A stretch of DNA of 48,506 nucleotides from assembly GCA_019429125.1 (NCBI GenBank), contig JAHYJO010000012.1, positions 1 through 48,506 of the forward strand, given 5' to 3'. The notes beneath the pieces were generated by a model, which was not told the origin of the DNA, did not search any database, and saw only the letters and a program-made list of their open reading frames with translations. How positions within the stretch are numbered: position 1 is the stretch's first letter; each line of letters starts with the position of its first letter. Below, piece after piece: positions 2,716-22,479 of the stretch. Made by a program: the position numbers and the translations under genes. Source of the DNA: Nanobdellati archaeon. Lineage in GTDB: Archaea > EX4484-52 > GLR71.

Positions 2716-2741
2716 ATTATACGGAGTTTATTCCGTATAAT
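2716..2741. other. Palindromic candidate tyrosine-recombinase binding/recombination site
   Basis: ATTATACGGA-GTTTAT-TCCGTATAAT: perfect 10-bp arms, 6-bp spacer, 10 bp from the integrase stop codon. Confidence 0.55.
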
Positions 2742-2751
2742 TCTGCTATAG

Positions 2752-3588
2752 TCATACTTTTTTATTGGTTCTATTTGTCTTTAGTTCTAAAAAATCAAGC
2801 GGACTGTTTACGGTTTTTATGAATGCATTTGATATATGTGTGTATATTTCAGTTGTCCTAATGTCATTGTGACCTAAAAGTCTTTGTATAATACGGATAT
2901 CTGTTCCGTTTTCAAGTAAGTGTGTTGCATAGCTGTGGCGTAATGTATGGGGGTGGACTTTCTTTTTTATATTTGTTTTTATTATGGTATTTTTCATAAT
3001 TTTTTGAATTGTGCTTGTTGTTAAATGTCCGCCTCTTGCAGAGTCAAAAACATAAGGGTTTTCGTCTGCGCGAGAGTTTATGTAGGATTTTAAACGAGAT
3101 GAAATGGATTTGGGTATCATAACAACCCTGTCTTTTTTTCCTTTTGCTTGTCGTATCATAAGGATATTTTCATCGAATCTTAAATCTTGCTTTTTAAGCT
3201 TTGTCACTTCAGATACTCTTAATCCGCACCCGTATATTGTTTCAATCAAAAGACGGTGTTTTGTGTTATTAATGTTGTTTAAAATCGTAATTGTCTCTTC
3301 TTTTGTTAAGACTTCAGGTAATCTCTTCGGTCTTTTCATGAAATTGAGATGCAATTGGTGTTTAAGGACATTCAGATAGAAAAACTTGACTGCACTTATC
3401 CTAAGATTTACAGTCAGATGATCCTTCGTGTCTGATAATTTAACAAAATACTTTTGAATATCTTCAGTTGATGACTCGATATTGTTGTGTCTTAAAAATG
3501 TGGATACATGAAACAGATACGCTTTTATGGTCTTTTGGCTCATGCCTTTTGATTTGAGTTCAAGCTTAAGCTTTGATATATTATCCAT
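2752..3588 (-). CDS. Tyrosine recombinase/integrase (XerD/IntI-like, lacking the IntI-specific insertion)
   Basis: YGCGLRVSE (Arg), KGKKDR (Lys), HTLRHSYATH, LLGH, TTEIYTH (Tyr); N-terminal SAM-like domain; only ~20 aa between KDRVVMIP and YVF. Confidence 0.93.
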   Translation of the reverse strand: MDNISKLKLELKSKGMSQKTIKAYLFHVSTFLRHNNIESSTEDIQKYFVKLSDTKDHLTVNLRISAVKFFYLNVLKHQLHLNFMKRPKRLPEVLTKEETITILNNINNTKHRLLIETIYGCGLRVSEVTKLKKQDLRFDENILMIRQAKGKKDRVVMIPKSISSRLKSYINSRADENPYVFDSARGGHLTTSTIQKIMKNTIIKTNIKKKVHPHTLRHSYATHLLENGTDIRIIQRLLGHNDIRTTEIYTHISNAFIKTVNSPLDFLELKTNRTNKKV

Positions 3589-3736
3589 ATTGATAATTTT
3601 ATTTTTCGCATTTATATGAGCTTTGCCAGTACCATGCCGGTAGATTTTTTTATTTTGAACAATTTATCCACACAATAACTTTTATAAATCCTCATATAAC
3701 ATAATTGGTATGCGCAAATAATCTCAAGGTGTTCTT

Positions 3737-6409: not shown

Positions 6410-6445
6410 AAATATTTATATAGTTATTGTTATGAATATAACAAT

Positions 6446-7021
6446 ATGGTTATAAAAATAACGACTACTGTTGTATTAGAACCTTTCCTTAATGAACCTT
6501 TTGATAAGTTGCATCTGGCTGATATTTCAAGACAGATTAACCAGCCTCATCCGACTGTTAGGCAACATTTGAATTATCTTGAGCAACAGGGAATATTGAT
6601 TAAGGAAATAAAAGGACGGAATACTCTTTATTGTCTTAATATTATTAATCCTCTTATTTTTCATTATCTTTCTATGTCAGAATGCAATAGGTTGATAACT
6701 TTTTCTGAAAATAATCTGGTCTTTAAAGAAATAGTTTTATTTTTTAATGAGTATACAAATGAAAGTGATTCTGTAATTGTATTTGGTTCTGAGGTTATTG
6801 ATTTTAAAAGGGCTAATGATGTTGATATTCTTATAATAGGTGATATTTCTTATCAAGAGGATATTGATAAACTGGCAGACAGATTAAATAAAAAATTGCA
6901 TGTAGTAAATGTCAAGTCTTTTGATGATGTAAGTTATGCGCTAAAAAAAGAGATATTGGCAAAACATTTGATTATACAGGGTATGGATGGTGTATTGAGA
7001 TGGTTGTTGAAGAAAAGATAA
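6446..7021 (+). CDS. wHTH + minimal nucleotidyltransferase (MNT antitoxin-like)
   Basis: N-terminal HTH (LHLADISRQINQPHPTVRQHLNYLEQQGIL) and VFGS...NDVDILIIG pol-beta NTase motif. Confidence 0.85.
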   Translation: MVIKITTTVVLEPFLNEPFDKLHLADISRQINQPHPTVRQHLNYLEQQGILIKEIKGRNTLYCLNIINPLIFHYLSMSECNRLITFSENNLVFKEIVLFFNEYTNESDSVIVFGSEVIDFKRANDVDILIIGDISYQEDIDKLADRLNKKLHVVNVKSFDDVSYALKKEILAKHLIIQGMDGVLRWLLKKR

Positions 7022-7209
7022 AGTGGTGTGGTGACCAAAAAAGAGGTATTCGTTTTGTTGAACCTAATCGTAATCTTTCAGATGAATATATGGATTATCC
7101 TGATGATACACTTCTTAATTTTATGCTTGAGATAAAATAAGTGCTTATGAAGATGACATATGATGATATTAATGGTATAAGAACAAAGATTAGGGTACTT
7201 ATTGATTGA
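7000..7209 (+). pseudogene. HEPN toxin remnant (internal deletion plus in-frame stop)
   Basis: Overlaps the MNT stop. Reads MVVEEKIKWCGDQKRGIRFVEPNRNLSDEY...FMLEIK*VLMKMTYDDINGIRTKIRVLID*. Both ends resemble archaeal MNT-linked HEPN proteins as I recall them; the middle is absent; TAA at 7138-7140. Confidence 0.6.
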
Positions 7210-7317
7210 TTTTACTATTTTAGTGAAATCTATGTTGTTGAATTATTGAGGTTTTGTGATTGGTTTGTATCAGTGAGTAATAAACACATTTAAATTATTT
7301 GTTATTTTATTTTTATC

Positions 7318-7770
7318 ATGTCTGATATATTAGTGGAACAGTTATCGGTACAATATCAGCCTGTAGGTCTTCATAAGAACGAACAAATATCTATATATCC
7401 TTTTGATGGTGGGCGATATGTTGAAAGAATATATGTTGATATTATTGATAAAATATTTTTTGGTGTCGATAAACCGTTAGTTACTTTTGAGGAGATTACT
7501 GGTATTGCTGAAGCAGTTTTTGATGATGTTCATTTTGCAATGAGGGATCATTCAACGGAAGGTTATCTTGTTTTATTTAAACCTCAAGGTATTGATAAGT
7601 ATTCGTTAAATTATGATGGACATGATATCGTTATTAGAAAACCTTTTGATACTTTAAAAATAACAATCTCTACAGGTAATCGTGGTGCGATTGGTTTAAA
7701 TTATAGGCAAAGAGAAAAATATTTTGATTTTGTAAATAAAGTTTATGATCTTTTTATTGAAAAGGTGTAA
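7318..7770 (+). CDS. Hypothetical protein
   Basis: 150-aa ORF, host-like codon usage, no recognised motif. Confidence 0.65.
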   Translation: MSDILVEQLSVQYQPVGLHKNEQISIYPFDGGRYVERIYVDIIDKIFFGVDKPLVTFEEITGIAEAVFDDVHFAMRDHSTEGYLVLFKPQGIDKYSLNYDGHDIVIRKPFDTLKITISTGNRGAIGLNYRQREKYFDFVNKVYDLFIEKV

Positions 7771-7783
7771 AAACCTTAATACT

Positions 7784-8035
7784 TTACCATTTTTCTAAAT
7801 CTTTTATGATGTCACCCTTTTTCTTTTTCTCAAAATGGAGGTCTTCTAAGGTCTTTAATCTTTTGTCTATGTTTGATATTGTGCGCGATATCTCAACTAG
7901 AGCTATCCAGATTTGGGATATTGCCGGGTTTTCTGAAGCTTTATATGCCTGTTTGTAGGTGACTGTGTCTTTGGTCAGATTCTCTAGGTCATGGCGTGTC
8001 TGCGCATCCAGTTTGTCTCTCCAATCTTTTGGCAT
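7784..8035 (-). CDS. Small helical/coiled-coil hypothetical protein
   Basis: 83-aa ORF with ATG start, fills the gap, amphipathic helices. Confidence 0.7.
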   Translation of the reverse strand: MPKDWRDKLDAQTRHDLENLTKDTVTYKQAYKASENPAISQIWIALVEISRTISNIDKRLKTLEDLHFEKKKKGDIIKDLEKW

Positions 8036-8079
8036 GGATATATCTAGTTGTTTGAACTTTTATTAACTTTTGGTACAAT

Positions 8080-8205
8080 CTATTTAGTCAGAAGTTCCAT
8101 TTCCTCGTCGCAACATATTAAAGTGCCACCACCAACTTGTGTCAGTGTCACTTCATTTCCGCATATGTTGCATCTGTAATTTTCACCAATTTCTTTTGTG
8201 GCCAT
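8080..8205 (-). CDS. Desulforedoxin-like Fe(Cys)4 protein, 41 aa (not in ORF track)
   Basis: MATKEIGENYRCNICGNEVTLTQVGGGTLICCDEEMELLTK: CxxCGN...GGG.L.CC..M signature; AGGTGA RBS just upstream. Confidence 0.9.
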   Translation of the reverse strand: MATKEIGENYRCNICGNEVTLTQVGGGTLICCDEEMELLTK

Positions 8206-8318
8206 AATATCACCTATATTTTATAGTATCTGAAATTATAAAAATCTTATAGATGGACATAACTTTTATAAATGTATTTGAAACAATCATTTGTAACATA
8301 ATAATTTTTGTGATTGCT

Positions 8319-8966
8319 ATGAAAGATGGGGATTTTGTAAATATTGGTTTTGTGGGTAGGATAAAGGAAAGTGGTGAGATATTTGACCTTACTGATGAAG
8401 AACTTGCAAAAAAAAGTAATATATATAATCCTCAGGTAAAGTATGGTCCTGTCACTGTTGTTTTAGGTGCTGGTCAGATTCTTCCTGGACTTGAGGCTGG
8501 CATAAAAAAATTGAGTGTCAAAGATAATTCAGATGTTGAGCTTGAGCCGTCAGTTGCATTCGGTGATCGTGATGCTCGCCTTATTAAGGTTTTTAATCAC
8601 AATCAATTCAAGTCACAGAACATTATTCCTATTCCTGGACATTATATTGATTTTGCAGGAACTAAAGGTCGTGTGGTCAGTGTCGCTAGCGGTCGGGTGC
8701 GTATGGATTTCAATCATCCGCTTGCAGGTAAGACTTTAGTATATACTGTTGGTGTCAATAAGATTGTTGAAGATGCAAGCGAACAGATTGGTGCTATAGT
8801 GTCATATTATACTGCAATTTATGATAATATCAAAATTGATATAAGTGGTAAGTCTGTAAAGATTAGTTTGCCTGCGGGGTCAGATGTTCAGGCAGGAGCT
8901 AAAAGAAAAATAACAGAGGCTATAATTAAATATGTTACATCAATTGAAAATGTTGAATTTGCATAA
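8319..8966 (+). CDS. FKBP-type peptidyl-prolyl isomerase (long archaeal SlyD-like)
   Basis: MKDGDFVNIGFVGRIKESGEIFD, ILPGLE, DFNHPLAGKTL; start moved to the ATG at 8319. Confidence 0.93.
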   Translation: MKDGDFVNIGFVGRIKESGEIFDLTDEELAKKSNIYNPQVKYGPVTVVLGAGQILPGLEAGIKKLSVKDNSDVELEPSVAFGDRDARLIKVFNHNQFKSQNIIPIPGHYIDFAGTKGRVVSVASGRVRMDFNHPLAGKTLVYTVGVNKIVEDASEQIGAIVSYYTAIYDNIKIDISGKSVKISLPAGSDVQAGAKRKITEAIIKYVTSIENVEFA

Positions 8967-9092
8967 GTATTTGCAATGAAATCAGGTGTGGTAAATTTAT
9001 CTATGAAGAGTAGCATAAAAAGATATATTTAAATATTTTATCATATCATTAAAAATTAAGTTTTGATATTTATACGGGGAGTTGTTTGATAT

Positions 9093-10196
9093 ATGGAAGA
9101 TATTATAAAAAATGCGGCTGTTAATCGGTCGAGTCCAAAAAATAAAAAAGCTCATTTGATTGATGACGAATTAAAAAAGATGCTTGATAAACGTCTTGCT
9201 GAGATTAAAGTTGTCGGTGCAGGTGGCGCAGGTAACAATACTCTTTCACGGCTTGCTGAGATTGGTATTGAAGGTGCAGATTTAATTGCAATAAATACTG
9301 ATGCTCAAGATTTACTTTATACGGATGCTGATGAAAAGATTCTGTTAGGTAAGGAATTAACAGAAGGTCTTGGTGCTGGTGCTGATCCATCAAAAGGTGA
9401 AGCTGCAGCTAAAGAGAACCGAGATGAAATAAAAGAGCATCTTGAAAATGCAGACATGATTTTTATAACTTGCGGTCTTGGTGGTGGCACTGGTACTGGT
9501 TCAGCACCTATTGTTGCTGAAATCTCAAAGAAGATTGGCGCATTGACTATTGCTATTGTCACTTTGCCTTTTGCTATGGAAGGTCAGCAGAGACAGGAAA
9601 ATGCAAAGCAGGGTCTTAAGAAACTTGAAGCTGCAGTTGATACTTTGATTGTTATACCTAATGATAAATTATTAGACATTGTTCCTGATGTATCTATTGA
9701 TATAGCTTTTAAAGTTGCTGACGAGATATTAGTAAATGCTGTAAAAGGCATAACTGAGCTTGTCACTAAACCGGGTCTTATAAATCTTGATTTCGCTGAT
9801 ATTAAAGCAGTCATGGGTGAAGGTGGTCTTGCTATGATTGGTATGGGTCAGAGCGATACTGAAAACCGAGCTGAAGAAGCTGCTATGAAAGCATTGTCTA
9901 ACCCTCTGTTAGATGTTGATATAGATGGCGCTGATGGTGCTTTGATTAATGTTGTCGGAGGAAGTGACCTTACGCTTAAGGAGAGTCAGGAAGTTGTAAA
10001 CTCTGTAACTTCAAGGCTGTCACCTGATGCGAAAATCATATGGGGTGCTCAATTGGACAAAGATCTTGGTGATTCTTTAAGAGTCATGCTTATTGTGACT
10101 GGTGTTAAGAGCCCACAAATTTTTGGTACTGAAATGGGTTTCCATAAAGAAGGCAAAAAACAGATTGAAAAAGATTTAGGTATTGAATTTATCTAA
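9093..10196 (+). CDS. ftsZ: Cell division protein FtsZ (FtsZ1-like)
   Basis: VVGAGGAGNN, GLGGGTGTG tubulin signature, INLDFAD T7 loop. Confidence 0.97.
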   Translation: MEDIIKNAAVNRSSPKNKKAHLIDDELKKMLDKRLAEIKVVGAGGAGNNTLSRLAEIGIEGADLIAINTDAQDLLYTDADEKILLGKELTEGLGAGADPSKGEAAAKENRDEIKEHLENADMIFITCGLGGGTGTGSAPIVAEISKKIGALTIAIVTLPFAMEGQQRQENAKQGLKKLEAAVDTLIVIPNDKLLDIVPDVSIDIAFKVADEILVNAVKGITELVTKPGLINLDFADIKAVMGEGGLAMIGMGQSDTENRAEEAAMKALSNPLLDVDIDGADGALINVVGGSDLTLKESQEVVNSVTSRLSPDAKIIWGAQLDKDLGDSLRVMLIVTGVKSPQIFGTEMGFHKEGKKQIEKDLGIEFI

Positions 10197-10365
10197 ACAT
10201 CTCTTTTTTTATTTTTTCCTTTAATCTCTTATTTCTCGCTCAAAACATTGAATTTTATTTTGTATGTTTTATACAGTATTCTTATAATATTTTATATATA
10301 ATTTGTGTTACATTAAAGTACATTAAAGTATTGTTTTTTAAACTTTAGGGAGTATTGAATAACTT

Positions 10366-10920
10366 ATGGTTTATGGTGATGTTTATCCAGATATGTCTTT
10401 GTCTGGATATTGTAATATTTTACTTGAGAATGGTTTTTTGAAGGTGTGTGATAATTATGTTCCTGTTGATTTAAATGATATTTCAGGTCCAAAAGTATCT
10501 ATATGGGTTGATGTTGATAAAGGGTATTTTATAGAACTTGTCGGTAATTTGCAAGATGATTGTGTGGCTTTTGCAAATATGTACTATGAGCTTGAGACAC
10601 AAAGAGATTTTGAGTGTGATGAATATGTGCGTAAATGGATGAAGTCTTATTTTGATTGTGTTGAGTCTCGTTTATTGCTTGGTTCTGAAAATACTACGCT
10701 TATTAGGCATGTAAGGAAAGATGTCACATCGGGTTTATCTGAATATTTGTTAGTTTTAGATGAGATTTATGTAGCACTTAAAGGGATTGATTCGTTTGGA
10801 GTGTATGGGGGTTGTGCTTCAATGATTCAAATAAATAGGGATTGGGTACATTTAGATAAACATCCAATATATCCTATGGTTCGGGAAACAATCTTAGATT
10901 ATGATGTAAAAAAGATGTAG
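10366..10920 (+). CDS. Hypothetical protein
   Basis: 184-aa ORF with GGGAG upstream; no recognised motif. Confidence 0.6.
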   Translation: MVYGDVYPDMSLSGYCNILLENGFLKVCDNYVPVDLNDISGPKVSIWVDVDKGYFIELVGNLQDDCVAFANMYYELETQRDFECDEYVRKWMKSYFDCVESRLLLGSENTTLIRHVRKDVTSGLSEYLLVLDEIYVALKGIDSFGVYGGCASMIQINRDWVHLDKHPIYPMVRETILDYDVKKM

Positions 10921-11004
10921 GTCGTTTTTAGATTAAGTGTATTTTGTTTTTCAGATAAATTTATATAACTTATTTATTCATTAATTTTCAGTAGGGTAAT
11001 AATT

Positions 11005-13398
11005 ATGGTGGATGCTAAGATTTCTGAGACAAAATGGGACAAGGCTTTTGAGTCTGAGATTTATGCGAAATGGAAGAAGGATAAGACTTATAAGTTTGAT
11101 AAGGATTCTAAGAAAAAAGTATATTCTATTGATACACCACCACCTTATGTAAACAGTCCTATTCATTTAGGTCATGCGACGACGTATGCGCTCATGGACA
11201 TGTTCGCACGGTACAAACGGATGAAAGGGTTTAATGTGCTTTTTCCGTTGGGTCTTGACAGGAACGGGTTGCCTATTGAGATGGCTGCTGAAAAAAAGTT
11301 CGGTGTAAAGCTTACTGAGACTAAACGCGAGGAATTTTTAGGTTTATGTGAAAAGATTTTAGGTGAGTCATCTGAGATTTCTACGGAATCATTTTTAAGG
11401 TTGGGTATCAGTTTTAATTCTTGGGAAGTTGGCAAAAAAATAGGTGATATGTACCATACTGACTCTGATGATTATAGGACCCTTACTCAGTCTACTTTTA
11501 TTGATCTTTGGAAGAAAGGTATGATACATGAGGATAAAAGGATTAACAATTGGTGTCCTGGATGCCAGACAACTCTTGCTGATTGCGAGATTGAGTATCA
11601 TGAACTGTCTACATTTTTTAATGATATCACGTTTAAGGTAAAAGAAACTGGCGAGGATATAATTATAGGTACCACGCGGCCTGAGCTTGTGTGCAGTTGC
11701 GGTATGGTCATATTTAATCCTGAAGATAAAAGGTATAAACATCTTGAGGGCAAGACTGCTATCACTCCGGTGTTCAATAAGGAGGTCCCCATTCGTGCGC
11801 ATCCGTTTGCAGATATGGGTAAGGGTACAGGTCTTGTTATGATGTGTTCGGCTGGGGACACTACTGATATCAGATTTTTTCGTGAGATGGGGCTCAATCC
11901 AGTTATATCAATTAATAAGGATGGGACTATGAATGGAAATGCTGGGTTCCTTGAAGGTATGAAAGTGCGCGATGCAAGGCTTGCTATGGTTGAGACTCTG
12001 AAAGAAAAAGGACTTCATGCTGGCTCTAAAAGGACTACGCATAGGACTCCTGTCTGTGAAAGGTCAAAAGACGAGGTTGAGTTCATTGAGATGAGTGAGC
12101 TGTACATGAAACAAGTTGACTTTAAAGATGACATGGTCAAGATTGCAAAGAGCGTTAATTTTTATTCTGAGAATTCACGGAAGATACTTCTTGACTGGAT
12201 TGATGGGGTGTCTATTGACTGGCCGATTTCACGGAGACGGTATTATGCAACACCTATACCTCTTTGGTATTGTGCTGATTGCGGGGAAGTTATAGTTCCT
12301 GAAAAATCGGGTGAACTATATAACCCATGGAAAGATAAGTGTCCAATAGATAAGTGTCCTGAGTGTGGCAGTTCTAAATTTAAAGGTGACGAGCGTGTGT
12401 TTGATACATGGTTTGACTCTTCAAATTCACCGCTTTATATATTGAAGTATATGCGTGATGATAAATTTTTCAATAAATCTATGCCTTGTTCGCTTAGGCC
12501 TCAAGGTAAGGAAATTGTAAGGACTTGGCTTTATTATACACTTCTTAAAGGGTATCATCTTGTAGATAAACCTATATTTGATGATGTGTTTGTGCATTTC
12601 CATATATTGGATGAAACTGGTATTAAGATGTCAAAGTCTCTCGGTAATGTGATTGATCCACGTGAGATACTTGAAAAGTTCGGTGCTGAACCTTTCAGGT
12701 TATGGGCTACTGTTGAAGGTAATCTTGACAAGACTGATTTTAGGTGTTCGTATGACAGGATTGAGGGGGCGGGCAAGACTCTTGCTAAATTCTGGAATGT
12801 GTCACGGTTCATTTCTATGTTTGAGGCAAGCGATGCCAAGGCTGAATTCAATGACATTGATTTTTGGATAAGGGGTGAGATGTCGAGACTTGTAAAGCTT
12901 GCTGATACGGGATATACTAAATATGATTTCCATAAGCCTATGATTGAGATTAAACATTTTATCTGGGAAACGTTCTCATCACATTATCTTGAGCTTGTGA
13001 AGAATAGGGCTTATAATTCTGAAGGTAAGTTTACGGCTGGTGAACAGAAGGGTGCGGTCGATACACTCAATTATTGCCTTCGCATGATGTTGAAGATTAC
13101 TGCGCCTGTGTTGCCATTTTTGACTTATAAAATCTATATGGAACTTGATGGTCATGATATACATTTTGAGGATTTTCCTGCTACTGAAAAATGTGTGAAA
13201 TCTAAGTTTGGGACTGACGATATTGTTGCATTAAATGGGATTATATGGAAAGCTAAACAGGGCGCAGGACTATCGCTTAAGAGTGAGATAATTGAAGTTA
13301 TTATGCCTCGCAAGTTTAAGTCTGTTGAGAAAGAGATTATGCTGACACATAATGTTAAAAAGATTGGTTATGGTGATGATGTTAAGGTTACTGTGTAA
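11005..13398 (+). CDS. valS: Valine--tRNA ligase (archaeal type)
   Basis: YSIDTPPPY, HLGH, TTRPEL, GTGLVMMC, DTWFDSS, LRPQGKEIVRTW, KMSKS. Confidence 0.95.
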   Translation: MVDAKISETKWDKAFESEIYAKWKKDKTYKFDKDSKKKVYSIDTPPPYVNSPIHLGHATTYALMDMFARYKRMKGFNVLFPLGLDRNGLPIEMAAEKKFGVKLTETKREEFLGLCEKILGESSEISTESFLRLGISFNSWEVGKKIGDMYHTDSDDYRTLTQSTFIDLWKKGMIHEDKRINNWCPGCQTTLADCEIEYHELSTFFNDITFKVKETGEDIIIGTTRPELVCSCGMVIFNPEDKRYKHLEGKTAITPVFNKEVPIRAHPFADMGKGTGLVMMCSAGDTTDIRFFREMGLNPVISINKDGTMNGNAGFLEGMKVRDARLAMVETLKEKGLHAGSKRTTHRTPVCERSKDEVEFIEMSELYMKQVDFKDDMVKIAKSVNFYSENSRKILLDWIDGVSIDWPISRRRYYATPIPLWYCADCGEVIVPEKSGELYNPWKDKCPIDKCPECGSSKFKGDERVFDTWFDSSNSPLYILKYMRDDKFFNKSMPCSLRPQGKEIVRTWLYYTLLKGYHLVDKPIFDDVFVHFHILDETGIKMSKSLGNVIDPREILEKFGAEPFRLWATVEGNLDKTDFRCSYDRIEGAGKTLAKFWNVSRFISMFEASDAKAEFNDIDFWIRGEMSRLVKLADTGYTKYDFHKPMIEIKHFIWETFSSHYLELVKNRAYNSEGKFTAGEQKGAVDTLNYCLRMMLKITAPVLPFLTYKIYMELDGHDIHFEDFPATEKCVKSKFGTDDIVALNGIIWKAKQGAGLSLKSEIIEVIMPRKFKSVEKEIMLTHNVKKIGYGDDVKVTV

Positions 13399-13503
13399 TT
13401 TTTGAGTGCCATAAACATTTATAAAGATTTATTGTTAAGTTTAGTTACAATTGTCTGCTCGTAATACTACTTAGGTAGGAGAGGGCTAGTTCTTGTGATT
13501 TAT

Positions 13504-13680
13504 ATGAAGTTTGATTTTAAGAAGAAAATAACTGAATGGAAGCGGGTCTTAAGCATAACTAAAAAACCGTCCAAGCAAGAGTTTTCAGCATCTGCAAAAA
13601 TTACAGGAATAGGTATGCTTATGATTGGATTTGTCGGATTTTTGATATATGTATTCGGCAAGGTTACAAATATATTTTAA
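13504..13680 (+). CDS. secE: Protein translocase subunit SecE/Sss1
   Basis: EWKRVLSITKKPSKQEF followed by one TM helix; directly upstream of spt5. Confidence 0.93.
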   Translation: MKFDFKKKITEWKRVLSITKKPSKQEFSASAKITGIGMLMIGFVGFLIYVFGKVTNIF

Positions 13681-13693
13681 GAGGTTATCGATT

Positions 13694-14128
13694 ATGATAT
13701 TTACTGTACGTACAACTGTTGGGCGAGAAAAGACGGCTATTGATTCAATCAATGTAAAAATTCAGGGTTCATTAGGACCTATCAAGGCTGTTATAAGTCC
13801 TGCAGAGCTTAAAGGATATATTTTTGTTGAAGGTGATGATGCCGATTCAGTCACTGAAGCCTTGAGAGCAGTGCCTCATGTTAAAGGTCTTATTAAAAAA
13901 CAGGTTGAGATTGAACAGATTGAAAGTTTCTTTGAAAATAAGGTTGAAATAATACAGTTCAAAGAAGGGGACCTTGTTGAAGTCATAGGGGGACCATTCA
14001 AGAAAGAAAAAGCTAGAGTTACGAGAATTAATGATACGAAGAGAGACGCAAAGGTTGAGCTTGTTGATGCTACGGTTCCAATACCTATCACAATCAAGTT
14101 GGATCTTCTTAAAAAAATAAATAATTGA
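13694..14128 (+). CDS. spt5: Transcription elongation factor Spt5/NusG
   Basis: MIFTVRTTVGRE, LKGYIFVE, KOW motif GDLVEVIGGPFK; GAGGT RBS. Confidence 0.95.
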   Translation: MIFTVRTTVGREKTAIDSINVKIQGSLGPIKAVISPAELKGYIFVEGDDADSVTEALRAVPHVKGLIKKQVEIEQIESFFENKVEIIQFKEGDLVEVIGGPFKKEKARVTRINDTKRDAKVELVDATVPIPITIKLDLLKKINN

Positions 14129-14142
14129 AATGTTGATTGATT

Positions 14143-14889
14143 ATGGGAACAAAAGTAATTGAAACACTTGTTGATGCTGGAAAAGCTTCTGCTGGACCAC
14201 CATTAGGACCAGCTTTAGGACCTATGGGTGTTAATATTGGTAATGTCATTGCTGCTATAAATGAAAAGACCAAAGATTTTTCAGGCATGAAAGTTCCTGT
14301 AAAAGTTATAATTGATGAAGAGACAAAAGAGTTTAAAATTACTATAGGTACTCCTCCTACATCACAGCTAATAAAGAAAGAACTTAATATTTTAAAAGGT
14401 GCACAAAAAACTGGTGAAGAGTTTGTAGCTGATATGAAAATTGAGCAAGCAATAAAGGTTGCAAAGATGAAAATGGATTCTATGGGTGCTAAAGATATTA
14501 AGGCTGCTGTAAAGACTGTCTGTGGTACTTGCCTTTCTATGGGTGTCATGATGGAGGGTAAGTCTGTGAAAGAGGCTCTTGTTGATATTGATAATGGTAT
14601 TTATGATGGTAAGATAATATCTGGAAAGACTGAGCTTACTGCTGAGGAACTTAAAGTGCAGGAAGATGAGAAAAAACAGTTGATTGAAAGCACTAAACTG
14701 ATGCATGCTAAAGAAGAAGAGGTTGCAAAGCAGTTAATATCTCAGATGAAAGGTAAGAGTCCTGAGGAAGTACGACATCGTCTTACTGAGCAGAACATTC
14801 ACAAAGACGTGATTGAAAAATTGCTTCCTAAGACTTCGTCAAAGGATGGCAAGGATGCAGGTAAAGATGCTGCTCCTAAGAAAAAATAA
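14143..14889 (+). CDS. rpl11: 50S ribosomal protein uL11 with long charged C-terminal extension
   Basis: GKASAGPPLGPALGP, GMKVPVKV, GTCLSMGV. Confidence 0.95.
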   Translation: MGTKVIETLVDAGKASAGPPLGPALGPMGVNIGNVIAAINEKTKDFSGMKVPVKVIIDEETKEFKITIGTPPTSQLIKKELNILKGAQKTGEEFVADMKIEQAIKVAKMKMDSMGAKDIKAAVKTVCGTCLSMGVMMEGKSVKEALVDIDNGIYDGKIISGKTELTAEELKVQEDEKKQLIESTKLMHAKEEEVAKQLISQMKGKSPEEVRHRLTEQNIHKDVIEKLLPKTSSKDGKDAGKDAAPKKK

Positions 14890-14914
14890 TATATTGATGG
14901 TTGCGTGATATAAT

Positions 14915-15544
14915 ATGAGTGATATACTAAATGCAATAAAGACTGTAAGGAAAGACACAAAAGAACGAAAATTTACACAGTCTTTTGAAGTTGCTTTAAA
15001 CCTTAAGGGTATTGATTTTAAAAAGCCGGAAAGTAAGTTTAAGGAAGATATAATGTTACCTAATGGTCGTGGTAATCCCTCTATTGTTGGTGTTATTGGT
15101 GACGAATTAGTCTCAAAATCTAAAGGTATCTGTGATGTATTTGTTACGGGTGATGATCTTTCTCGTTTAGAAAAAGATAAAAAACAAGCAAAAACACTTG
15201 TTAACAGTGCTGATTTTTTTATAGCTGAACCTGCGTTCATGGGAAAAGTCGGTAAAGGTCTTGGTAGAATTATGGGTCCTAAAAATAAGATGCCTCAACC
15301 ATTTCCGCCAACTGGTGATCCTAAAGGGCTTGTTGAAAGATTAAAAAAGACTACACGGATTGTATTGAAGGATGCTCCTGTAATACATTGTCTTGTAGGG
15401 AACGAGAAGATGAGTGATGAAGAGCTTGAAGCAAATATTAAACATGTTATCTCTTCAATAACTTCAAAGCTTCCAAATAATCAGCACAATATTAAGTCAT
15501 TATATCTTAAGATGACTATGGGTCCTGCTGTGAAGATTAGGTAA
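14915..15544 (+). CDS. rpl1: 50S ribosomal protein uL1
   Basis: RKFTQSFEVALNLK, LGRIMGPKNKMP, KMTMGPAVKI. Confidence 0.96.
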   Translation: MSDILNAIKTVRKDTKERKFTQSFEVALNLKGIDFKKPESKFKEDIMLPNGRGNPSIVGVIGDELVSKSKGICDVFVTGDDLSRLEKDKKQAKTLVNSADFFIAEPAFMGKVGKGLGRIMGPKNKMPQPFPPTGDPKGLVERLKKTTRIVLKDAPVIHCLVGNEKMSDEELEANIKHVISSITSKLPNNQHNIKSLYLKMTMGPAVKIR

Positions 15545-15555
15545 GGTGTGATATT

Positions 15556-16533
15556 ATGGTTCAACAAGACAAAAAAGATAAGGTAAAGGAACTTACAGAA
15601 CTCATGAATAAATATTCTGTTATTAATTTTTTAGAATTGAGTAAGCTTCCAGCATCACAGATTCATAGCATAAAGAAAGATATCCGAGGTATCTCAAAGG
15701 TTGTTGTTGCAAAAAAAAGAATTATTAAGCTTGCGTTTGAACAATCTGATAAGAAAGATATAGAAAAACTTTTTGATATACCTGTTGCTATTCCTGGTCT
15801 GATATTTTCAAATGAGAATCCATTTAAGTTATTTGGTATCCTTAAGAGAAATAAGGCTGAAGCTTTTGCAAAAGTTGGTGATAAAGCACCACATGATATA
15901 GTGATTCCTGCAGGAGATACTAATCTTGCTCCAGGTCCCATGATAGGCACTTTGCAGAAAGCTAAGGTGGCAGCAAGAATACAAGGGGATAAGATAGTTA
16001 TTGCTTCAGATTCTAAAGTGGCTTCTGAAGGTGATATTATTGATGCTAATCTTTCATCTATTCTTATGCAGCTTGGAATTAAACCTATGGAAATAGGACT
16101 TAATGTGGTTGCAGCATATGAGAATGGTGTCATATTTGATAAGAATACTTTAGATATTGATTTAGGTGCTTACAAGTCAAATTTCATGTTAGCATATATT
16201 AGTTCGTTAAATCTTGCAGTCAGTGCGGTTATAATGAATGGTAGGAGTGTACCTATCTTAGTTGGTAAGGCTCATACGAATGCTTTAAATCTTGCTGTTT
16301 ATGCAAATGTTGCAAATAGTGAAACAATCTCAATGTTTATCTCAAAAGCACAGGCTCAAATGAATTCTGTTGCATCCAGATTACCTGAAAATGCAAGAGG
16401 TAGTGTTGTTGTAACTGCACAGGCTGAACCTGATACAACAGGAGATAAAAAAGAAGAACCTGAATCAAAATCTGTTTCGGAAGAAAAGAAACCTGACGAG
16501 ATGGCTATGGGTCTTGGGTCTCTTTTTGGTTGA
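15556..16533 (+). CDS. rpl10: 50S ribosomal protein uL10 (P0)
   Basis: APHDIVIPAGDTNLAPGP, LGIKPMEIGL, C-terminal GLGSLFG. Confidence 0.96.
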   Translation: MVQQDKKDKVKELTELMNKYSVINFLELSKLPASQIHSIKKDIRGISKVVVAKKRIIKLAFEQSDKKDIEKLFDIPVAIPGLIFSNENPFKLFGILKRNKAEAFAKVGDKAPHDIVIPAGDTNLAPGPMIGTLQKAKVAARIQGDKIVIASDSKVASEGDIIDANLSSILMQLGIKPMEIGLNVVAAYENGVIFDKNTLDIDLGAYKSNFMLAYISSLNLAVSAVIMNGRSVPILVGKAHTNALNLAVYANVANSETISMFISKAQAQMNSVASRLPENARGSVVVTAQAEPDTTGDKKEEPESKSVSEEKKPDEMAMGLGSLFG

Positions 16534-16562
16534 GATAATGACATAATATTGGAGGAATTGAT

Positions 16563-16853
16563 ATGGAATATATATACGCGGCAATGTTACTACATGCTTT
16601 AGGAAATAAGGTTGATGAACCAAGTGTTAAGAAAGTTCTTGATGCAGCGGGTGCTAAAACTGATGATTCAAGAGTTAAGGCTCTAATTGCAGCTCTTGAT
16701 GGTGTTGATATGGAAGAAGCAATAAATACAGCAGCATTAGCACCACAGGTAGCAGTAGCTCCTGTAGCTGCTCCTGTAGCAGCTAAAGAAGAGAAGAAAG
16801 AAGAACCTAAACCTGAAGCAGCAGCGGCAGGTCTTGGTGCTCTATTCGGTTAG
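16563..16853 (+). CDS. rpl12: 50S ribosomal stalk protein P1 (aL12)
   Basis: [11 protein letters not shown], Ala-rich hinge, GLGALFG. Confidence 0.96.
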
Positions 16854-16855
16854 AT

Positions 16856-16925
16856 TTTTTGATTTTTGATTTTTCTTTTTTCTTTTTTTTGAAAAGAAGA
16901 TCTTTCTCTTTTTTTTATTTTTTTA
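16856..16925 (+). terminator. Oligo(dT) archaeal terminator region of the ribosomal protein operon
   Basis: Several T6-T8 runs immediately after the rpl12 stop. Confidence 0.5.
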
Positions 16926-16965
16926 TTTTGTTTTCAGTTTTTAATTATATATTTTAGGGGTTATC

Positions 16966-17217
16966 ATGTCTAGGGCTGATAATAAACGTTGCACTAATTG
17001 TAAATTTTTTTTTCTGGCACATAGATGTGATGGTGTTTGTGAATTCTGTACATATCCTGGTTTAATGTGGCAGTATAAGGTAATTAATGGTCGCGTGCCT
17101 ATCTATATGGATTTGGATCAAATAGATGTATTGTCTTGTGAAAATTATGTTTTTAATCCATTTACATATTATATTAATATTTTTTTGTTGCGTTTCTTGA
17201 GAAAAGAGATTGTTTAG
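16966..17217 (+). CDS. Small Cys-rich hypothetical protein
   Basis: RCTNC...CDGVCEFC...SCENY; GGGGT RBS; stop overlaps the rnhB stop. Confidence 0.55.
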   Translation: MSRADNKRCTNCKFFFLAHRCDGVCEFCTYPGLMWQYKVINGRVPIYMDLDQIDVLSCENYVFNPFTYYINIFLLRFLRKEIV

Positions 17218-18577: not shown

Positions 18578-18806
18578 ATGGTGCCTAATTGGTGATTTTT
18601 GGTCATTATTGTTGGGATGGTGCCTAATTGTGTCCTTTTTGTAGATTTGTGTTGATTTTAAGATGAATGGGTTTGTCTCTTTTTGGTTTTTTGGTTTTTT
18701 GGTTATGTGTAAGTATATAGTGCCTAACTGCTTGGTTTATTGTTAAATTAAAGTATGGTGACTAACTGTATTTTTTTGTATGTGTTATATGAATAGTGCC
18801 TAATTG
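18578..18806 (+). repeat. Array of five 14-bp boxes ATRGTGMCTAAYTG
   Basis: Copies start at 18578, 18617, 18717, 18755, 18793 (spacing 39, 100, 38, 38). Confidence 0.9.
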
Positions 18807-18865
18807 ATGTTTTTTTCATGTTTTTTTCCGTTAGCTTTATTATCAACCTTTGACCTATTAGTAGT

Positions 18866-19798
18866 ATGGTCTTTGTTTGGCTTGTGAATAAGATTGCAGG
18901 TATATTTAAAAAATATGGGTCTGATATCTCAAAATCTGATGTTGATGAAGATTTCGATATGGTTCTTCAGGTAATTCAGGAAGGTTTCGGAAAGATTAGA
19001 AGTAGGTTTGAAACTGTTGATAATGAAATTAATAATATTCGTGCGGCCGTTCTTTTAAAAGATGTTCATTCTTCAGAGCATGAATCTTTAAGGCAAGATA
19101 TATTATCAAATACTTCTCAATATAATTATATATTAAATAATGTTCATAATTTATATAATCGGATTGATGCTGTTGAACAGAGTGTCGGGGCAGTTAATAA
19201 GTCTAGTGATTCTGAGGAACTTCATCAGATGTATAATAATCTTGATTCTCGTATTCAGTCATCTAATTTAAAAATACAAGAAGAAGTTATGGCTAAAATA
19301 ATTCCACATATTAATGCGATTGAAACTAAGATATCTGATGTTAATTCCAAAAATTATCAGCTTGTTGATGAAATTCGGGTTTTGAAAGAACAGATTAAGA
19401 TGTCTGTAAGATCTTCTGATAACAATGTTATCACAAAGGATAACAATATTGTCTCACCGATTAACAATGTTACCACAACAAATGAGTCATTGGATGTTGT
19501 ATCCCACAGTGTTACAACAGCATTTAAGCCAAGTCGTACGATTATAACATCACGTAATCTTAACAAAGTTTTACCTTCAGCACTTATTCCTACTTTCAAT
19601 GAGTTATTGAATGCTGATAAATTTTTATCTTATTTTGAGCTTGCTAAATTATTGGATAAACGTGAGGCAACTGCTAGAGCTTATGTGAATGATCTTCGTA
19701 ATCGTGGTGTTGCGGTTGAGGAGGAGACACGTGAAAATGGACGAAAACTTGTTAGGCTTGCAAAAGATATACGTCAGCAATATATTATTCCTGAATGA
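18866..19798 (+). CDS. Coiled-coil protein with C-terminal winged helix-turn-helix domain
   Basis: Heptad-rich N-terminal ~180 aa, N/T/V-rich linker, then LLNADKFLSYFELAKLLDKREATARAYVNDLRNRGVAVEEETRENGRKLVRL (HTH plus wing). Confidence 0.85.
   Translation: MVFVWLVNKIAGIFKKYGSDISKSDVDEDFDMVLQVIQEGFGKIRSRFETVDNEINNIRAAVLLKDVHSSEHESLRQDILSNTSQYNYILNNVHNLYNRIDAVEQSVGAVNKSSDSEELHQMYNNLDSRIQSSNLKIQEEVMAKIIPHINAIETKISDVNSKNYQLVDEIRVLKEQIKMSVRSSDNNVITKDNNIVSPINNVTTTNESLDVVSHSVTTAFKPSRTIITSRNLNKVLPSALIPTFNELLNADKFLSYFELAKLLDKREATARAYVNDLRNRGVAVEEETRENGRKLVRLAKDIRQQYIIPE
19421..19519 (+). repeat. Iteron-like 15-bp boxes at 21-bp period inside the wHTH gene
   Basis: AACAATGTTATCACA (19421), AACAATATTGTCTCA (19442), AACAATGTTACCACA (19463), CACAGTGTTACAACA (19505). 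Confidence 0.75.
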
Positions 19799-19870
19799 TT
19801 TATTGGATTCTTTTTTGAGTGTTATAATTTTGTTGTAACAGAGTCATAACCGTGTTCCCACAAGTGTTTG

Positions 19871-20270
19871 GTATAACAGAACAGCAACATAACAATGTTG
19901 TAACAGTGTTATGCGTCAAATGCGTCATTTGTTGTTATCTTGTCTTGGATGTTGTCATATTTAGGGATGTTATTCTTTCTATTTTAATGATACTTTTAGG
20001 TTCTTAAAAAAATTTCCTTTGAAATTCTAATCTTTCTGTTATAATTTATTTTAATATAAACTATTTCTATTTTTAGGTCGATTTGTATCTGTTTGTTGTT
20101 GTAGTATAACAACATAACAATGTTGTAACAGAATTATGTGTCATTCGTTGTTATTTAGTTAGATGTTGTCCTTCTAAGAGTGGTATGATCTTTCTATTTT
20201 TATAATATTTTTTGGTTCCTAAAATTTTTTTCTTTGAAATTTTAATGATCCTGTTATAACTATTTTTATT
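19871..20270 (+). repeat. Diverged direct duplication of ~170-190 bp carrying TGTTRTAACA boxes
   Basis: Copy 1 ~19871-20056, copy 2 ~20104-20270; shared blocks CAACATAACAATGTTGTAACAG, GATGTTGTC, TCTTTCTATTTT, CTTTGAAATT, CTGTTATAA. Confidence 0.85.
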
Positions 20271-20687
20271 ATGGTGTATTTAATCTTTTTTTTTGTTTTT
20301 GTTTTTTTGACTATTATGTGTCTTGCGTTATTGTAGTATTTTTATATTTGATCTATTTTTGTGTTGTAACTATGTTATTTTTGTTATTATCTTTGATATT
20401 GTTATTTATCTGTTATTTTGTTATAACAGCTGTTTTTGGCGTATTTTTTTGGTTTTTCTTCCTTTGGTATATTGTTTGGTTTTTTCTTCTTAACACTTAA
20501 ATTTTATGTATTTTATGTATTTTTTGTGTCTTTGTATTGTGAATACCAAAAGGGTATTTTGTCTAAATATGTTGTTTTTTGTGTATTTTTATCTGATGTT
20601 ATCGTTTTATATATCTCGCTATATTGGTATGTCTTTATATTCTTCTGATTTTTTTATTTTAACTCTCACATTTTTTGTGAGTTTTTT

Positions 20688-20883
20688 TAGTAATGTAGCT
20701 TTATAGTAATGTAGCTTTATAGTATTATTTTATTATAATTTTATATTTTTATATTTGTATCGTTTTATAGTTGTGTGTCTTTATTTATGTATATTATCAG
20801 GGTTTTATTGTATTATATTTTTATAGTAGTCTATTATCATAGTAGTCTATTATCATAATAGTCTATTATTATAATATCCTATT
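20688..20883 (+). repeat. Two sets of 16-bp tandem repeats in an AT-rich tract
   Basis: TAGTAATGTAGCTTTA x2 (20688-20719); TAGTAGTCTATTATCA x2 plus two degenerate copies (20824-20883). Confidence 0.85.
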
Positions 20884-21094
20884 TGTATATTTTCATTTTA
20901 TTATATTTTCATCTCTATATCACACTATATAATTATAGTTTTATTTTTTTTCATTTTGTGTATGATTGTGCTCAAGAACCCTTACTTAATTGCTATCAAT
21001 TATATGTTTTTTGTCAAAACAGAATAAATTACGTTTGATTTTTTTTATTTTTTTGCAGAAATATTTTTTGTGAATTTTTTTTAACTCTCACATT

Positions 21095-21949
21095 TTAGTT
21101 GATTTTTTTTGTTGAAAGTGGATGTGCTTTGGTGTATATATTTTCTTTTCTTTTGTTTGTTACATGCATATAAATCTGCGTGGTTGCCAGGTTTGAGTGG
21201 CCTAAAAGCTCTTTTATTATCATTATATCTGCATCGTTTTGCAGAAGATGAGTAGCAAAAGAATGTCTTAATGTATGGGGTGTTACTGTTTTTGTTATTC
21301 CACATTGTTCTGAATAATATTTTACTATTCTTTGTATCGATCTTTGAGTCAATCTTTCTTTTTTTAGGTTGATAAAAATAGCTGGGTTGTTATCGTTTCT
21401 AGTTCTTAGATAATTTTTTATTTTTTTTAATGTGCCCTCATCAGCATAGACTATTCTGTCTTTTGAGCCTTTTCCGTCTATTATCTTTATGTTATTTCCT
21501 TCAATATTTTCTCTGTTCATGTCTACAAGTTCTGAAACCCGCATCCCGCAGGCGTAAAGTAGTTGTATGATTGCTCTGTCTCGGAGGTTTTCAATTGATG
21601 TCAGGAGCTTTTGTGTCTCTTCAATTGTCAGAAATCCTGGTAGTTTTTGTGATACTTTTGGTAATTTTATGTTGTCTGCTACTATATTTTTGGTAATCCT
21701 GAAGAAGCTTTTTATTGCGTTGAGGTGTCTGTGTATGGTTGTGTTGGTTGCGTTTTTACCCTGCTGTAAGTAGACTAAATAGTTTTTTATGTCTGTTTCT
21801 GTTATGTCTTGCGGTGATTTTTTTGTGAATTTTAGGAAGTTATCTATTGTGTATACATAGCTTTCTAGGGTGTTGTGTGAATAACCTCTTAGTTTTATTT
21901 CTGTTTTGAAATTTTCAAAATAATTAGGTTTTTGTGTGTCTTCTACCAT
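21095..21949 (-). CDS. xerA: Tyrosine recombinase XerA
   Basis: EIKLRGYSHNTLESY, YACGMRVSEL, GKGSKDR, VTPHTLRHSFATHLL, LLGHSNLATTQIY; adjacent dif-type site. Confidence 0.88.
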   Translation of the reverse strand: MVEDTQKPNYFENFKTEIKLRGYSHNTLESYVYTIDNFLKFTKKSPQDITETDIKNYLVYLQQGKNATNTTIHRHLNAIKSFFRITKNIVADNIKLPKVSQKLPGFLTIEETQKLLTSIENLRDRAIIQLLYACGMRVSELVDMNRENIEGNNIKIIDGKGSKDRIVYADEGTLKKIKNYLRTRNDNNPAIFINLKKERLTQRSIQRIVKYYSEQCGITKTVTPHTLRHSFATHLLQNDADIMIIKELLGHSNLATTQIYMHVTNKRKENIYTKAHPLSTKKIN

Positions 21950-22017
21950 AGTTTATCCGCCTAGATTTTATTATTTTTTCACGTTTGGTCGCTTGTTACT
22001 GTTTTTATCAGAGTGTC

Positions 22018-22045
22018 ATGTCGCATAATATACATTATGCGACAC
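22018..22045. other. dif-type Xer recombination site
   Basis: ATGTCGCATAA-TATACA-TTATGCGACAC: 11-6-11 layout, perfect 10-bp inverted arms, inner ATAA/TTAT; minus-strand spacer TGTATA equals the E. coli dif spacer. Confidence 0.88.
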
Positions 22046-22222
22046 AGAATATATTATAGTTTTTATTCCTTATATGCTTTTTGGTGCTACAGTTGCTGTT
22101 TTTTATGTTGTAACATTGTTTTTATAGGGTTTATTTCTGTTTTTTATAGTTTTTGTGGCTTTTTGAGGGGGGGGTAAGATATGTTTTTTTTGTCTTGATT
22201 TATATCTTGTGGTTTTTATTAA

Positions 22223-22429
22223 TATTTGGGCACCATGTTCTATTTTTTCGGATTTATTTAGAAATAGGCACTAGTTTATTTTTGGATGTTTTGTAATGTC
22301 TCTTGTTTAAGATTTAGGCACCAATATTTATTTGTCATATTTTTATTCATGTGGTCTGGTTAATGTTAAGTATTTTTATCTTATTTTATATTTTTTGAAA
22401 TGTTGGTATTTTTTGTAGTTAGGCACCAG
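22223..22429 (-). repeat. Four inverted copies of the 14-bp box seen at 18578-18806
   Basis: TATTTGGGCACCAT (22223), GAAATAGGCACTAG (22261), GATTTAGGCACCAA (22311), TAGTTAGGCACCAG (22416) versus reverse-complement consensus CARTTAGGCACYAT. Confidence 0.8.
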
Positions 22430-22479
22430 TAAACTTCGGTGTATTTTTAAGATTTAATAATTATCAATTTTTTGATATT

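Follow-up and report, generated by a model that had tools for sequence, protein, structure and literature searches.

Binding sites that lie within the gene of their own binder are already known, as in lambda O and in parS sites inside parB genes. In Bacillus subtilis, parS lies inside spo0J, and in F, sopC consists of twelve 43-bp repeats after sopB. The coiled-coil DNA binders MatP, RacA and Noc mark one region with short palindromes (matS, ram and NBS, respectively), and MatP acts around dif. Sulfolobus oriC3, with WhiP, has been proposed to be a captured extrachromosomal replicon, and Weaver and colleagues are said to have placed, in 2009, the RepA_N origin inside the rep gene. Here we describe a 2.7-kb locus (positions 19415-22120) of a Nanobdellati archaeon (assembly GCA_019429125.1, contig JAHYJO010000012.1), in which a gene for a winged helix-turn-helix (wHTH) protein carries palindromic boxes in the codons of a disordered linker and is followed by more boxes in non-coding DNA. 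All positions refer to the window, that is, the whole stretch of 48,506 nucleotides, which is the entire 48.5-kb contig C25 of the query genome G000 (1,158,795 bases, 34% GC, 32 contigs). Exclusive to this locus and conserved in three genera, the boxes are constrained at the DNA level.

An article on lambda O (PMC7466680) describes binding repeats in the middle of the gene, in a part of the protein that is dispensable for DNA contact, with a copy number that varies among relatives and changes protein length, and with an AT-rich tract behind them. The archaeal locus is similar to lambda O and ori-lambda in that candidate binding repeats lie inside the gene, in its disordered part, in varying number and with an AT-rich tract after them. 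Unlike lambda O, however, the protein has no sequence or specific fold relation to that initiator, most of the sites are located outside the gene, the AT-rich region is non-coding and 1.3-1.9 kb long, and the locus is archaeal and chromosomal with no skew sign of origin activity. Unlike the RepA_N initiators, the wHTH protein contains no RepA_N domain and has no plasmid or virus relatives in the collections searched. The locus shares with ParB/parS and SopB/sopC the presence of palindromic sites, some in tandem arrays, within or next to the gene of the putative binder, but no ParB or CTPase domain and no nearby ParA- or SopA-type ATPase was found. The sites of MatP, RacA and Noc are widely dispersed, whereas those described here are packed into 3 kb together with the gene itself, and no homology to these proteins was seen. 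As in archaeal oriC regions with their origin recognition boxes (ORBs) and in Sulfolobus WhiP/oriC3, AT-rich, repeat-bearing non-coding DNA adjoins a winged-helix gene, and, as in archaeal oriC, the box core is shared with a palindrome adjacent to orc1; unlike these systems, the locus lacks a neighboring orc1, shows neither ORB enrichment nor a switch in skew, and encodes a winged helix of a generic type. What sets this case apart is its protein family, its location on an archaeal chromosome, its position next to dif in two of three genera, the measurable footprint in codon choice and the palindrome shared with an origin.

Boxes in the linker codons and beyond the gene

An AlphaFold2 model based on a 13-sequence alignment divides the wHTH protein into helices (residues 26-183), a disordered linker (residues 183-222) with a predicted local distance difference test score (pLDDT) below 50, and a confident winged helix (residues 241-298, pLDDT 81-90). 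An earlier note, made from the letters of this DNA, had reported four boxes in the linker at 19421, 19442, 19463 and 19505 in 21-bp phase, and this description is borne out by the sequence, by the open reading frame (ORF) and by Tandem Repeats Finder, which delineates a 21-bp array of 2.9 copies at 19418-19478. The boxes are 15 bp long and all in frame, and they encode residues 185-205 and 214-218 (DNNVITK-DNNIVSP-INNVTTT ... HSVTT). Box 1 and its flanks form a 13-bp palindrome, ATAACAATGTTAT. More generally, AACA and TGTT half-sites alternate in the site (AACA-W-TGTT-NN-AACA), generating overlapping palindromes of 9 bp (AACA-W-TGTT) and 10 bp (TGTT-NN-AACA).

The intergenic copies at 19891, 20116 and, more weakly, 19848, and the inverted copy at 22106-22120 near dif, are also present as the earlier note stated. 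The first of them belongs to a 25-bp near-palindrome with four half-sites, CATAACAATGTTGTAACAGTGTTAT, and the second, CATAACAATGTTGTAACAGAA, sits in the second copy of a tandem duplication of about 225 bp (19865-20066 and 20090-20281). A coding role for the intergenic boxes was considered and rejected: the small ORF 19852-20007 reads the 19891 box as NNVVT, but at the 20116 copy this frame is closed by a stop codon three codons before the box.

The boxes are concentrated in the locus. With up to two mismatches, the consensus AACARTGTTRYMACA matches the window 15 times against 2.46 expected, a count reached by none of 100 shuffles, and 12 of these 15 matches fall in 19415-22120. Throughout the G000 assembly, seven of the nine matches with at most one mismatch are in the locus, as are all five exact matches (19421, 19463, 19891, 20116 and, on the minus strand, 22106). 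The short cores TGTTNNAACA or AACANTGTT have 88 matches genome-wide, 12 of them in three 1-kb bins (19, 20 and 22 kb), and the 19-kb bin of C25 is the densest in the genome. The motif is therefore not equally frequent elsewhere in the genome, and the earlier note is not refuted on this point.

How widely is this arrangement conserved? The comparison set comprises 42 genomes of one order/phylum, of which 32 belong to other families without a detected gene, and linker DNA was compared in seven genomes from three genera of one family (G000, G001, G002, G005, G007, G008 and G009). All seven have in-gene boxes at 21-bp period: three plus one in the query's genus, seven in G008 and two plus one in G009, giving a range of 3-7 across orthologs. 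Every genome with assembled downstream DNA has more boxes there, including five at 127-bp period in G002, four at 76-126 bp in G001 and a cluster of TGTTATAACA palindromes in G008, where perfect palindromes such as CTGCTGTTATAACAGCAG stand directly past the stop codon. Beyond xerA-dif, two boxes are found in each of G001, G002 and G005 and one in G000 (22106). In the five genomes with an assembled locus, exact matches to AACAWTGTTNNAACA are located in the gene's locus in 31 of 31 cases (three in G000, six in G001, 11 in G002, five in G005 and six in G008), and the 32 genomes of other families contain eight single matches, zero or one each. Among the family genomes without an exact match, G003 and G007 have a truncated locus, G004 and G006 have no detected gene, and G009 has variant boxes. 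In distant homologs known only as proteins (P0011-P0018 and P0020), [ND]xV[TA]T repeats persist although the rest of the linker is not conserved.

The assembly breaks inside the wHTH gene in three of the eight gene-bearing assemblies (G002 C125/C1, G003 C104 and G007 C137), and the locus is thus often absent or broken in draft genomes.

DNA constraint and peptide constraint in the linker

The NNVTT peptide is itself conserved, and codon-level tests are therefore needed to separate constraint on the DNA from constraint on the peptide. The first Asn of the box is encoded by AAC in 25 of 25 cases (background AAC usage, 32% in G000 and 21% in G008), the Val by GTT in 29 of 29 (background, 34.5% and 50%, respectively), and codon 4 of boxes 1 and 3 remains a C-ending ACC, GCC or ATC in six genomes, a rare choice that accounts for 8-15% of the codon families. 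Codon choice is different in an NVT-sequon repeat encoded on contig C14, where 13 of 14 Asn residues are specified by AAT and the Val codons are mixed. This repeat is an N-glycosylation sequon run (INVTNVTIITNVTNVINVTNVTTIMNITNVTT...) at 63686-63850 of G000 C14 in a large, probably surface, protein.

The synonymous-site comparison proposed in the earlier note was carried out, and in three between-genome pairs identical residues are encoded by identical codons far more often in the linker than in the rest of the gene: 14 of 16 versus 67 of 145 for G000-G001, 13 of 17 versus 56 of 106 for G000-G008, and 16 of 21 versus 38 of 93 for G001-G008. The DNA core is also retained where the peptide differs, as in NNIVS, NNVVA, NIVAT, DSVAT and NTVVT. 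In addition, a recoding simulation was performed, in which synonymous codons were resampled from genomic usage and each version was scored by its matches to a consensus built from the intergenic boxes. With the better of the mismatch thresholds taken for each genome, the observed matches number 4 in G000 (mean of the recodings 1.0; observed value reached by 4 of 3000), 5 in G001 (mean 1.43; 1 of 3000), 5 in G002 (mean 1.28; 1 of 3000), 4 in G005 (mean 0.41; 0 of 3000), 3 in G007 (mean 0.38; 5 of 3000) and 6 in G008 (mean 1.52; 1 of 2000).

The claim of the earlier note that the linker is constrained as DNA is thus upheld by codon choice, synonymous-site conservation, recoding and the locus-exclusive distribution, in three genera. 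The repeats are not kept at the protein level only, given that their DNA is conserved as well. The more specific expectation, of a peptide that varies among species over matching DNA, is borne out only in the G009-type lineage (DSVAT/DNVAT/NTVVT); elsewhere, the NNVTT peptide and its DNA are both conserved. Taken together, these results indicate selection on the linker at the level of its DNA, and the evidence supports the view that the in-gene boxes and the adjacent non-coding copies are one site family.

Could the peptide nevertheless be the selected entity, with NNVTT as a functional repeat (an N-glycosylation sequon or a Thr-rich spacer) and the DNA similarity as a by-product? NVT is a sequon, NVT-repeat surface proteins exist in the genome, the N-terminus of the wHTH protein is hydrophobic, and most homologs conserve the linker peptide. 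However, codon choice is far from free, the non-coding copies carry identical DNA, many boxes keep the DNA core without encoding a sequon (NNVIT, NNIVS, NNVVA, NIVAT, DSVAT and DNVAT), and the C-terminal domain is a basic winged helix. The peptide-level explanation is thus largely refuted, and we regard its chances as very remote.

The wHTH protein and candidate readers of the boxes

The wHTH protein is a member of an undescribed DPANN family. It matches no Pfam or NCBIfam family above the cut-off and hence no Rep or ParB family either. Thirteen members were found in a collection of 5.8 billion proteins, and about 13 clusters in a library of 1.84 billion representatives look like true members, most other matches covering the coiled coil alone. 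Among GTDB species genomes, the homologs are confined to one DPANN family, where seven of the nine genomes besides the query have them, in at most one copy each. The JGI metagenome contigs and viral contigs gave pattern matches only and no confirmed relative of the gene, a tblastn search of the PLSDB plasmids gave no relative, and full-text literature searches returned no description of the protein family or the locus. A term search of a Nanobdellota preprint (10.64898/2026.05.13.725050) returned nothing on dif or XerA.

The N-terminal segment of the protein, MVFVWLVNKIAGIF, is hydrophobic and conserved and, being amphipathic as judged by eye, could act as a membrane or partner anchor. The C-terminal domain is basic and confidently predicted (pLDDT 81-94), and its last 90 residues, modelled alone (pLDDT 83), display the wHTH topology H-H-H-strand-strand, with a nearly invariant third helix, EATARAYVNDLR. 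The best VIA Z scores of this model (9.3-8.0 over 78-83 residues) are to ST1889, MarR, SmtB and TFE-alpha, and its best Foldseek E-value is 2.5e-3, so that the predicted fold is a generic MarR/ArsR-type winged helix. Fold relatives of the Orc1 winged helix, Rep, RTP and ParB are absent among the matches listed, although such a listing cannot exclude them.

Which protein reads the boxes? We consider it somewhat better than an even chance that the boxes are selected DNA sites that are read by the product of the gene in which they lie, a reader that we infer from co-occurrence, proximity, palindromy and the winged-helix fold. The own product is favored because box clusters exist only where the gene exists, because boxes lie inside and directly after the gene in three genera, because palindromic sites are matched by a C-terminal winged helix with a near-invariant third helix, and because the boxes accompany the gene in G008, in whose assembly no xerA was found. 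In the mechanism that we propose, winged-helix dimers would bind the palindromes, and the 21-bp spacing, equal to two helical turns, would place the in-gene sites on one face of the DNA helix. The coiled coil may then join bound dimers within and between clusters, that is, those in the gene, in the proximal array and, in the query's genus, beyond dif, and the outcome would be a single large nucleoprotein complex at one chromosomal address. Such an assembly would resemble a centromere- or anchor-like module whose sites overlap or abut the gene of the binder, as with parS in parB and sopC after sopB, whose arrays nucleate large complexes, or else the lambda O-some, and the linker would accept any peptide that its DNA dictates (NNVTT and its variants). 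The putative complex may serve as an anchor or centromere, in replication control or as an Xer accessory.

For the organization, segregation and resolution of chromosomes in DPANN archaea, the locus is a candidate anchor, centromere or replication-control element that pairs an undescribed DNA-binding family with a cognate-looking cluster of sites, next to dif in most members. It also appears to be a natural case of dual coding, in which a disordered peptide is apparently dictated by selection on DNA, measurable through the retention of rare codons across genera.

Several observations weigh against the own product as the reader of selected sites. No partner ATPase and no other conserved neighbor was seen in the neighborhood of the gene, and kinship among the compared genomes reduces the effective sample to about three to four lineages. 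The recoding result is weak in G009 (1 match observed versus a mean of 0.03, reached by 89 of 3000 recodings, or by 599 of 3000 at two mismatches), and at the one-mismatch level it is marginal for G000 (55 of 3000) and G002 (132 of 3000). The second Asn of the G008 in-gene boxes is AAC in five of seven, which changes TGTT to CGTT and spoils the half-site. The in-gene boxes of the query's genus use ACC (TGTTACCACA) although the preferred ACA would yield the intergenic consensus, and they thus represent a distinct, possibly weaker, variant. Homogenization of the repeats inside the gene could be behind part of the codon uniformity; concerted evolution, however, can keep codons uniform within a genome and cannot do so between genera. 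Moreover, the core of the box, ATAACAWTGTTAT, recurs as a conserved palindrome next to orc1, even in families without a detected gene: the orc1-adjacent TATAACAnTGTTATA is found at seven of seven loci of the query's family and at nine of 24 loci of families without a detected gene, and the full 15-bp box form stands beside orc1 in two of the latter, G016 and G021. Given this conservation, an order-wide factor other than the wHTH protein may read the boxes.

Such a factor, for example the second Orc1/Cdc6 paralog, would bind the oriC palindrome, and the wHTH gene would merely host or neighbor a titration sink or regulatory array. Two Orc1/Cdc6 genes (TIGR02928) are present in every genome examined, in line with this view, as is the orc1-adjacent palindrome itself. 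We nevertheless hold the order-wide factor to be a rather improbable reader, given that box clusters are confined to genomes with the gene and, in each of the three genera, include sites within it, that gene-less genomes have at most one exact copy, and that the persistence of sites in the linker of one gene over such evolutionary distances is left unexplained. The wHTH protein may have been adapted to an origin element that is older than itself, or a different factor may recognize the sequence in both places. A bolder reading, which we regard as quite improbable, is that the protein binds a single palindrome in two places, namely at the center of the orc1-adjacent origin and in the dense cluster in and around its own gene beside dif. 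The cluster might then be a sink or an anchor encoded by the gene itself, comparable to datA or to a centromere, through which replication initiation is coupled to the resolution or segregation of the chromosome in these very small archaeal cells, and the disordered linker would be mainly a carrier of DNA sites. If this were true, the linker would be an archaeal chromosomal protein-coding segment selected primarily as protein-binding DNA. The proximity of the boxes to xerA and dif raises yet another option, namely that the wHTH protein is an accessory or regulator of XerA/dif that controls chromosome-dimer resolution or the expression of xerA. Boxes of the query's genus bracket xerA-dif (19421-20428 and 22106 in G000, with two boxes beyond dif in each of G001, G002 and G005), and xerA-dif follows the gene again in G009. 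However, G009 has no boxes beyond dif, and in G008 the gene persists together with its boxes and the long non-coding region in an assembly that yielded no PF00589 (Phage_integrase) or dif match, which indicates that the boxes go with the wHTH gene and not with xerA. We regard an Xer-dedicated role as decidedly improbable. The G008 assembly is 93% complete in 20 contigs, the control genomes were all positive in the same searches, and either XerA lies in the unassembled part or the lineage lacks it.

The word iteron, used in the earlier note, implies an origin, and the locus could be a replicator, secondary or dormant, that encodes the initiator it uses in the manner of lambda O/ori or RepA_N, possibly a captured extrachromosomal replicon. 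In-phase repeats in the gene are followed by 1.3 kb at 21% GC, the downstream arrays differ in copy number, the variation of 3-7 in-gene boxes parallels the repeat-number variation of known systems, the box core is identical to the palindrome at the center of the origin beside orc1, and a tyrosine recombinase adjoins the locus in two of three genera. Strand skew, however, lends no support to an origin at the locus. In G008, where the wHTH gene and the nearer of the two orc1 genes share a 287-kb contig, GC skew at third codon positions (GC3 skew) flips from about -0.44 to about +0.05 at orc1 and not at the wHTH gene 93 kb away, and this sharp flip marks the orc1 site as the active origin. The only further significant GC3 change point on this contig, at about 179 kb and 23 kb from the locus, is smaller and has no obvious feature. 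In G000, where both orc1 genes are on other contigs, the strand-corrected GC3 skew is alike on both sides of the locus (-0.005 versus -0.003). On strand-skew evidence, the locus is therefore not the main replication origin or terminus, although a rarely used origin would leave no skew. Furthermore, the ORB-like consensus TTCTANNGGAAAT (plus a G-string), derived by eye from orc1-adjacent regions, is not enriched in the window (26 matches versus 34 expected, one weak match in the locus), the protein has no similarity to Rep families and no relatives in the viral contigs or plasmids searched, and the gene is single-copy with chromosomal neighbors conserved within the genus. The locus is thus neither a canonical Orc1 origin nor a recognizable mobile replicon, and a replicator of its own is unlikely.

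At the orc1 loci, one conserved palindrome, TATAACAnTGTTATA, occupies the middle of an origin-like region, flanked by ORB-like TTCTATAGGAAAT elements and inverted CCCTCACCCC/GGTGTGAGTG strings; the region also has G-strings and an AT-rich center. AT skew at third codon positions also flips sharply at orc1 of G008, together with GC3 skew, at about 105-115 kb of C11. In both genera, the genes on either side are oriented toward the locus (window 166-17217 on the plus strand versus 21095-42081 on the minus strand; G008:C11 around 200 kb), and this convergence was rejected as a terminus signal, with skew unchanged at the locus.

The xerA-dif module, the non-coding region and other repeats

Table 1. 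Positions of the wHTH gene, its boxes and neighboring elements; unless another genome, contig (C) or locus (L) is given, positions are those of the window.
Feature	Position	Strand	Remarks
Array of five (A/G)GTGCCTAAYTG repeats	18578-18810	+	mostly 38-39 bp apart; upstream of wHTH gene
wHTH gene	18866-19798	+	ORF call; 310-residue protein
Box 1, AACAATGTTATCACA	19421-19435	+	in linker; encodes NNVIT
Box 2, AACAATATTGTCTCA	19442-19456	+	encodes NNIVS; degenerate, 2 mismatches
Box 3, AACAATGTTACCACA	19463-19477	+	encodes NNVTT
Box 4, CACAGTGTTACAACA	19505-19519	+	encodes HSVTT; includes TGTTACAACA
Long non-coding region	19799-21094		21% GC, 55% T on gene's strand; proximal boxes and several tandem arrays
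Weak/partial boxes TGTTGTAACA (19831) and AACCGTGTTCCCACA (19848)	19826-19862		just past stop codon; 19848 with 2 mismatches
Composite intergenic site CATAACAATGTTGTAACAGTGTTAT	19888-19912		boxes at 19891 (+) and 19896 (-)
Second intergenic box CATAACAATGTTGTAACAGAA	20113-20133	+	box start 20116
Further weak sites AACATAGTTACAACA (20362, -) and TGTTATAACA (20419)	20362-20428
XerA-like tyrosine recombinase	21095-21949	-	Pfam Phage_integrase, E 8.8e-41; best solved relative P. abyssi XerA 4a8e, E 1.9e-55
dif-like palindrome ATGTCGCATAA-TATACA-TTATGCGACAC	22018-22045		11-6-11; paired arms once in G000
Box beyond dif, AACAATGTTACAACA	22106-22120	-	identical to NNVTT DNA; 61 bp from dif-like palindrome
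Inverted array of the (A/G)GTGCCTAAYTG repeat	22226-22430	-	TTAGGCAC at 22314 and 22419; weaker copies near 22230 and 22268
TAACTCTCACATTT, copies elsewhere	L015 8686, 10645, 11177; L018 2284, 2788, 3121; L019 1184, 1513
orc1-adjacent TATAACAnTGTTATA	G000 C23 near 33043 (L022 2860); L021 2817; L023 2793; L024 1776		further orc1 loci L059-L085

The xerA-dif pair adjoins the wHTH gene in two of three genera. The arms of dif are conserved and its center is variable in G001, G002, G005 and G009, where it always lies just upstream of xerA. A second XerA-like recombinase (2752-3588, minus strand) is 37% identical to the first and matches P. abyssi XerA with an E-value of 1e-48; no dif-like palindrome was found beside it. 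No ParB, ParA or CbiA family match appeared among the 39 ORFs of the window or among 24 ORFs scanned at the loci of G008 and G009.

The two (A/G)GTGCCTAAYTG arrays flank the module in inverted orientation and point toward dif. Four or five repeats per side are present in G001, G005 and G002, two in G009 on the dif side only, and none in G008. Given their absence from G008, where no xerA or dif was found, the arrays track xerA-dif and not the wHTH gene, and they are probably a separate system. The exact 12-mer has just two other copies in the genome. Another candidate, GTGCCTAA, was rejected as a polar motif similar to the FtsK-orienting polar sequences (KOPS): of the 62 copies that lie outside the locus, only 30 are oriented in keeping with local GC skew. 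The 68 copies in the whole genome are heterogeneous, many being located within coding sequence, and only the long form RGTGCCTAAYTG is enriched in the locus.

A non-coding region of 0.9-1.9 kb is located 3' of the wHTH gene in all related genomes examined. It is 51-55% T on the strand of the gene and 21-29% GC in six of six genomes (window 19930-21090 and its equivalents in G001, G002, G005, G008 and G009), and its opposite strand has no ORF of at least 40 residues except one of 42. Phased T-tracts, as in curved DNA, were tried and rejected, with no peak at 10-11.5 bp above the 95th percentile of shuffles in any of the six genomes. The region contains TAACTCTCACATTT in all three genera, with three exact copies in G000, two of them at 20660-20673 and 21082-21095; in the query's genus, the first copy is a CTCACA/TGTGAG hairpin followed by a T-run. 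Two tandem arrays with 16-bp units, TTTATAGTAATGTAGC (2.6 copies, 20684-20724) and TTATAGTAGTCTATTA (4.3 copies, 20805-20889), and TATATCTC(A/G)CTATAT-like elements at 20612 and 20918, which are conserved within the genus, are also found in this region.

A dispersed element, ATCACTCA(C)TTTTTGAACAGTGCCTAAAA, occurs at five places in G000 (C13:54533, C13:23800, C15:29202, C14:10749 and C18:1932). An ORF of at least 80 residues begins 49-51 nucleotides downstream in three of the five copies, and the element may be a shared promoter or regulatory element.

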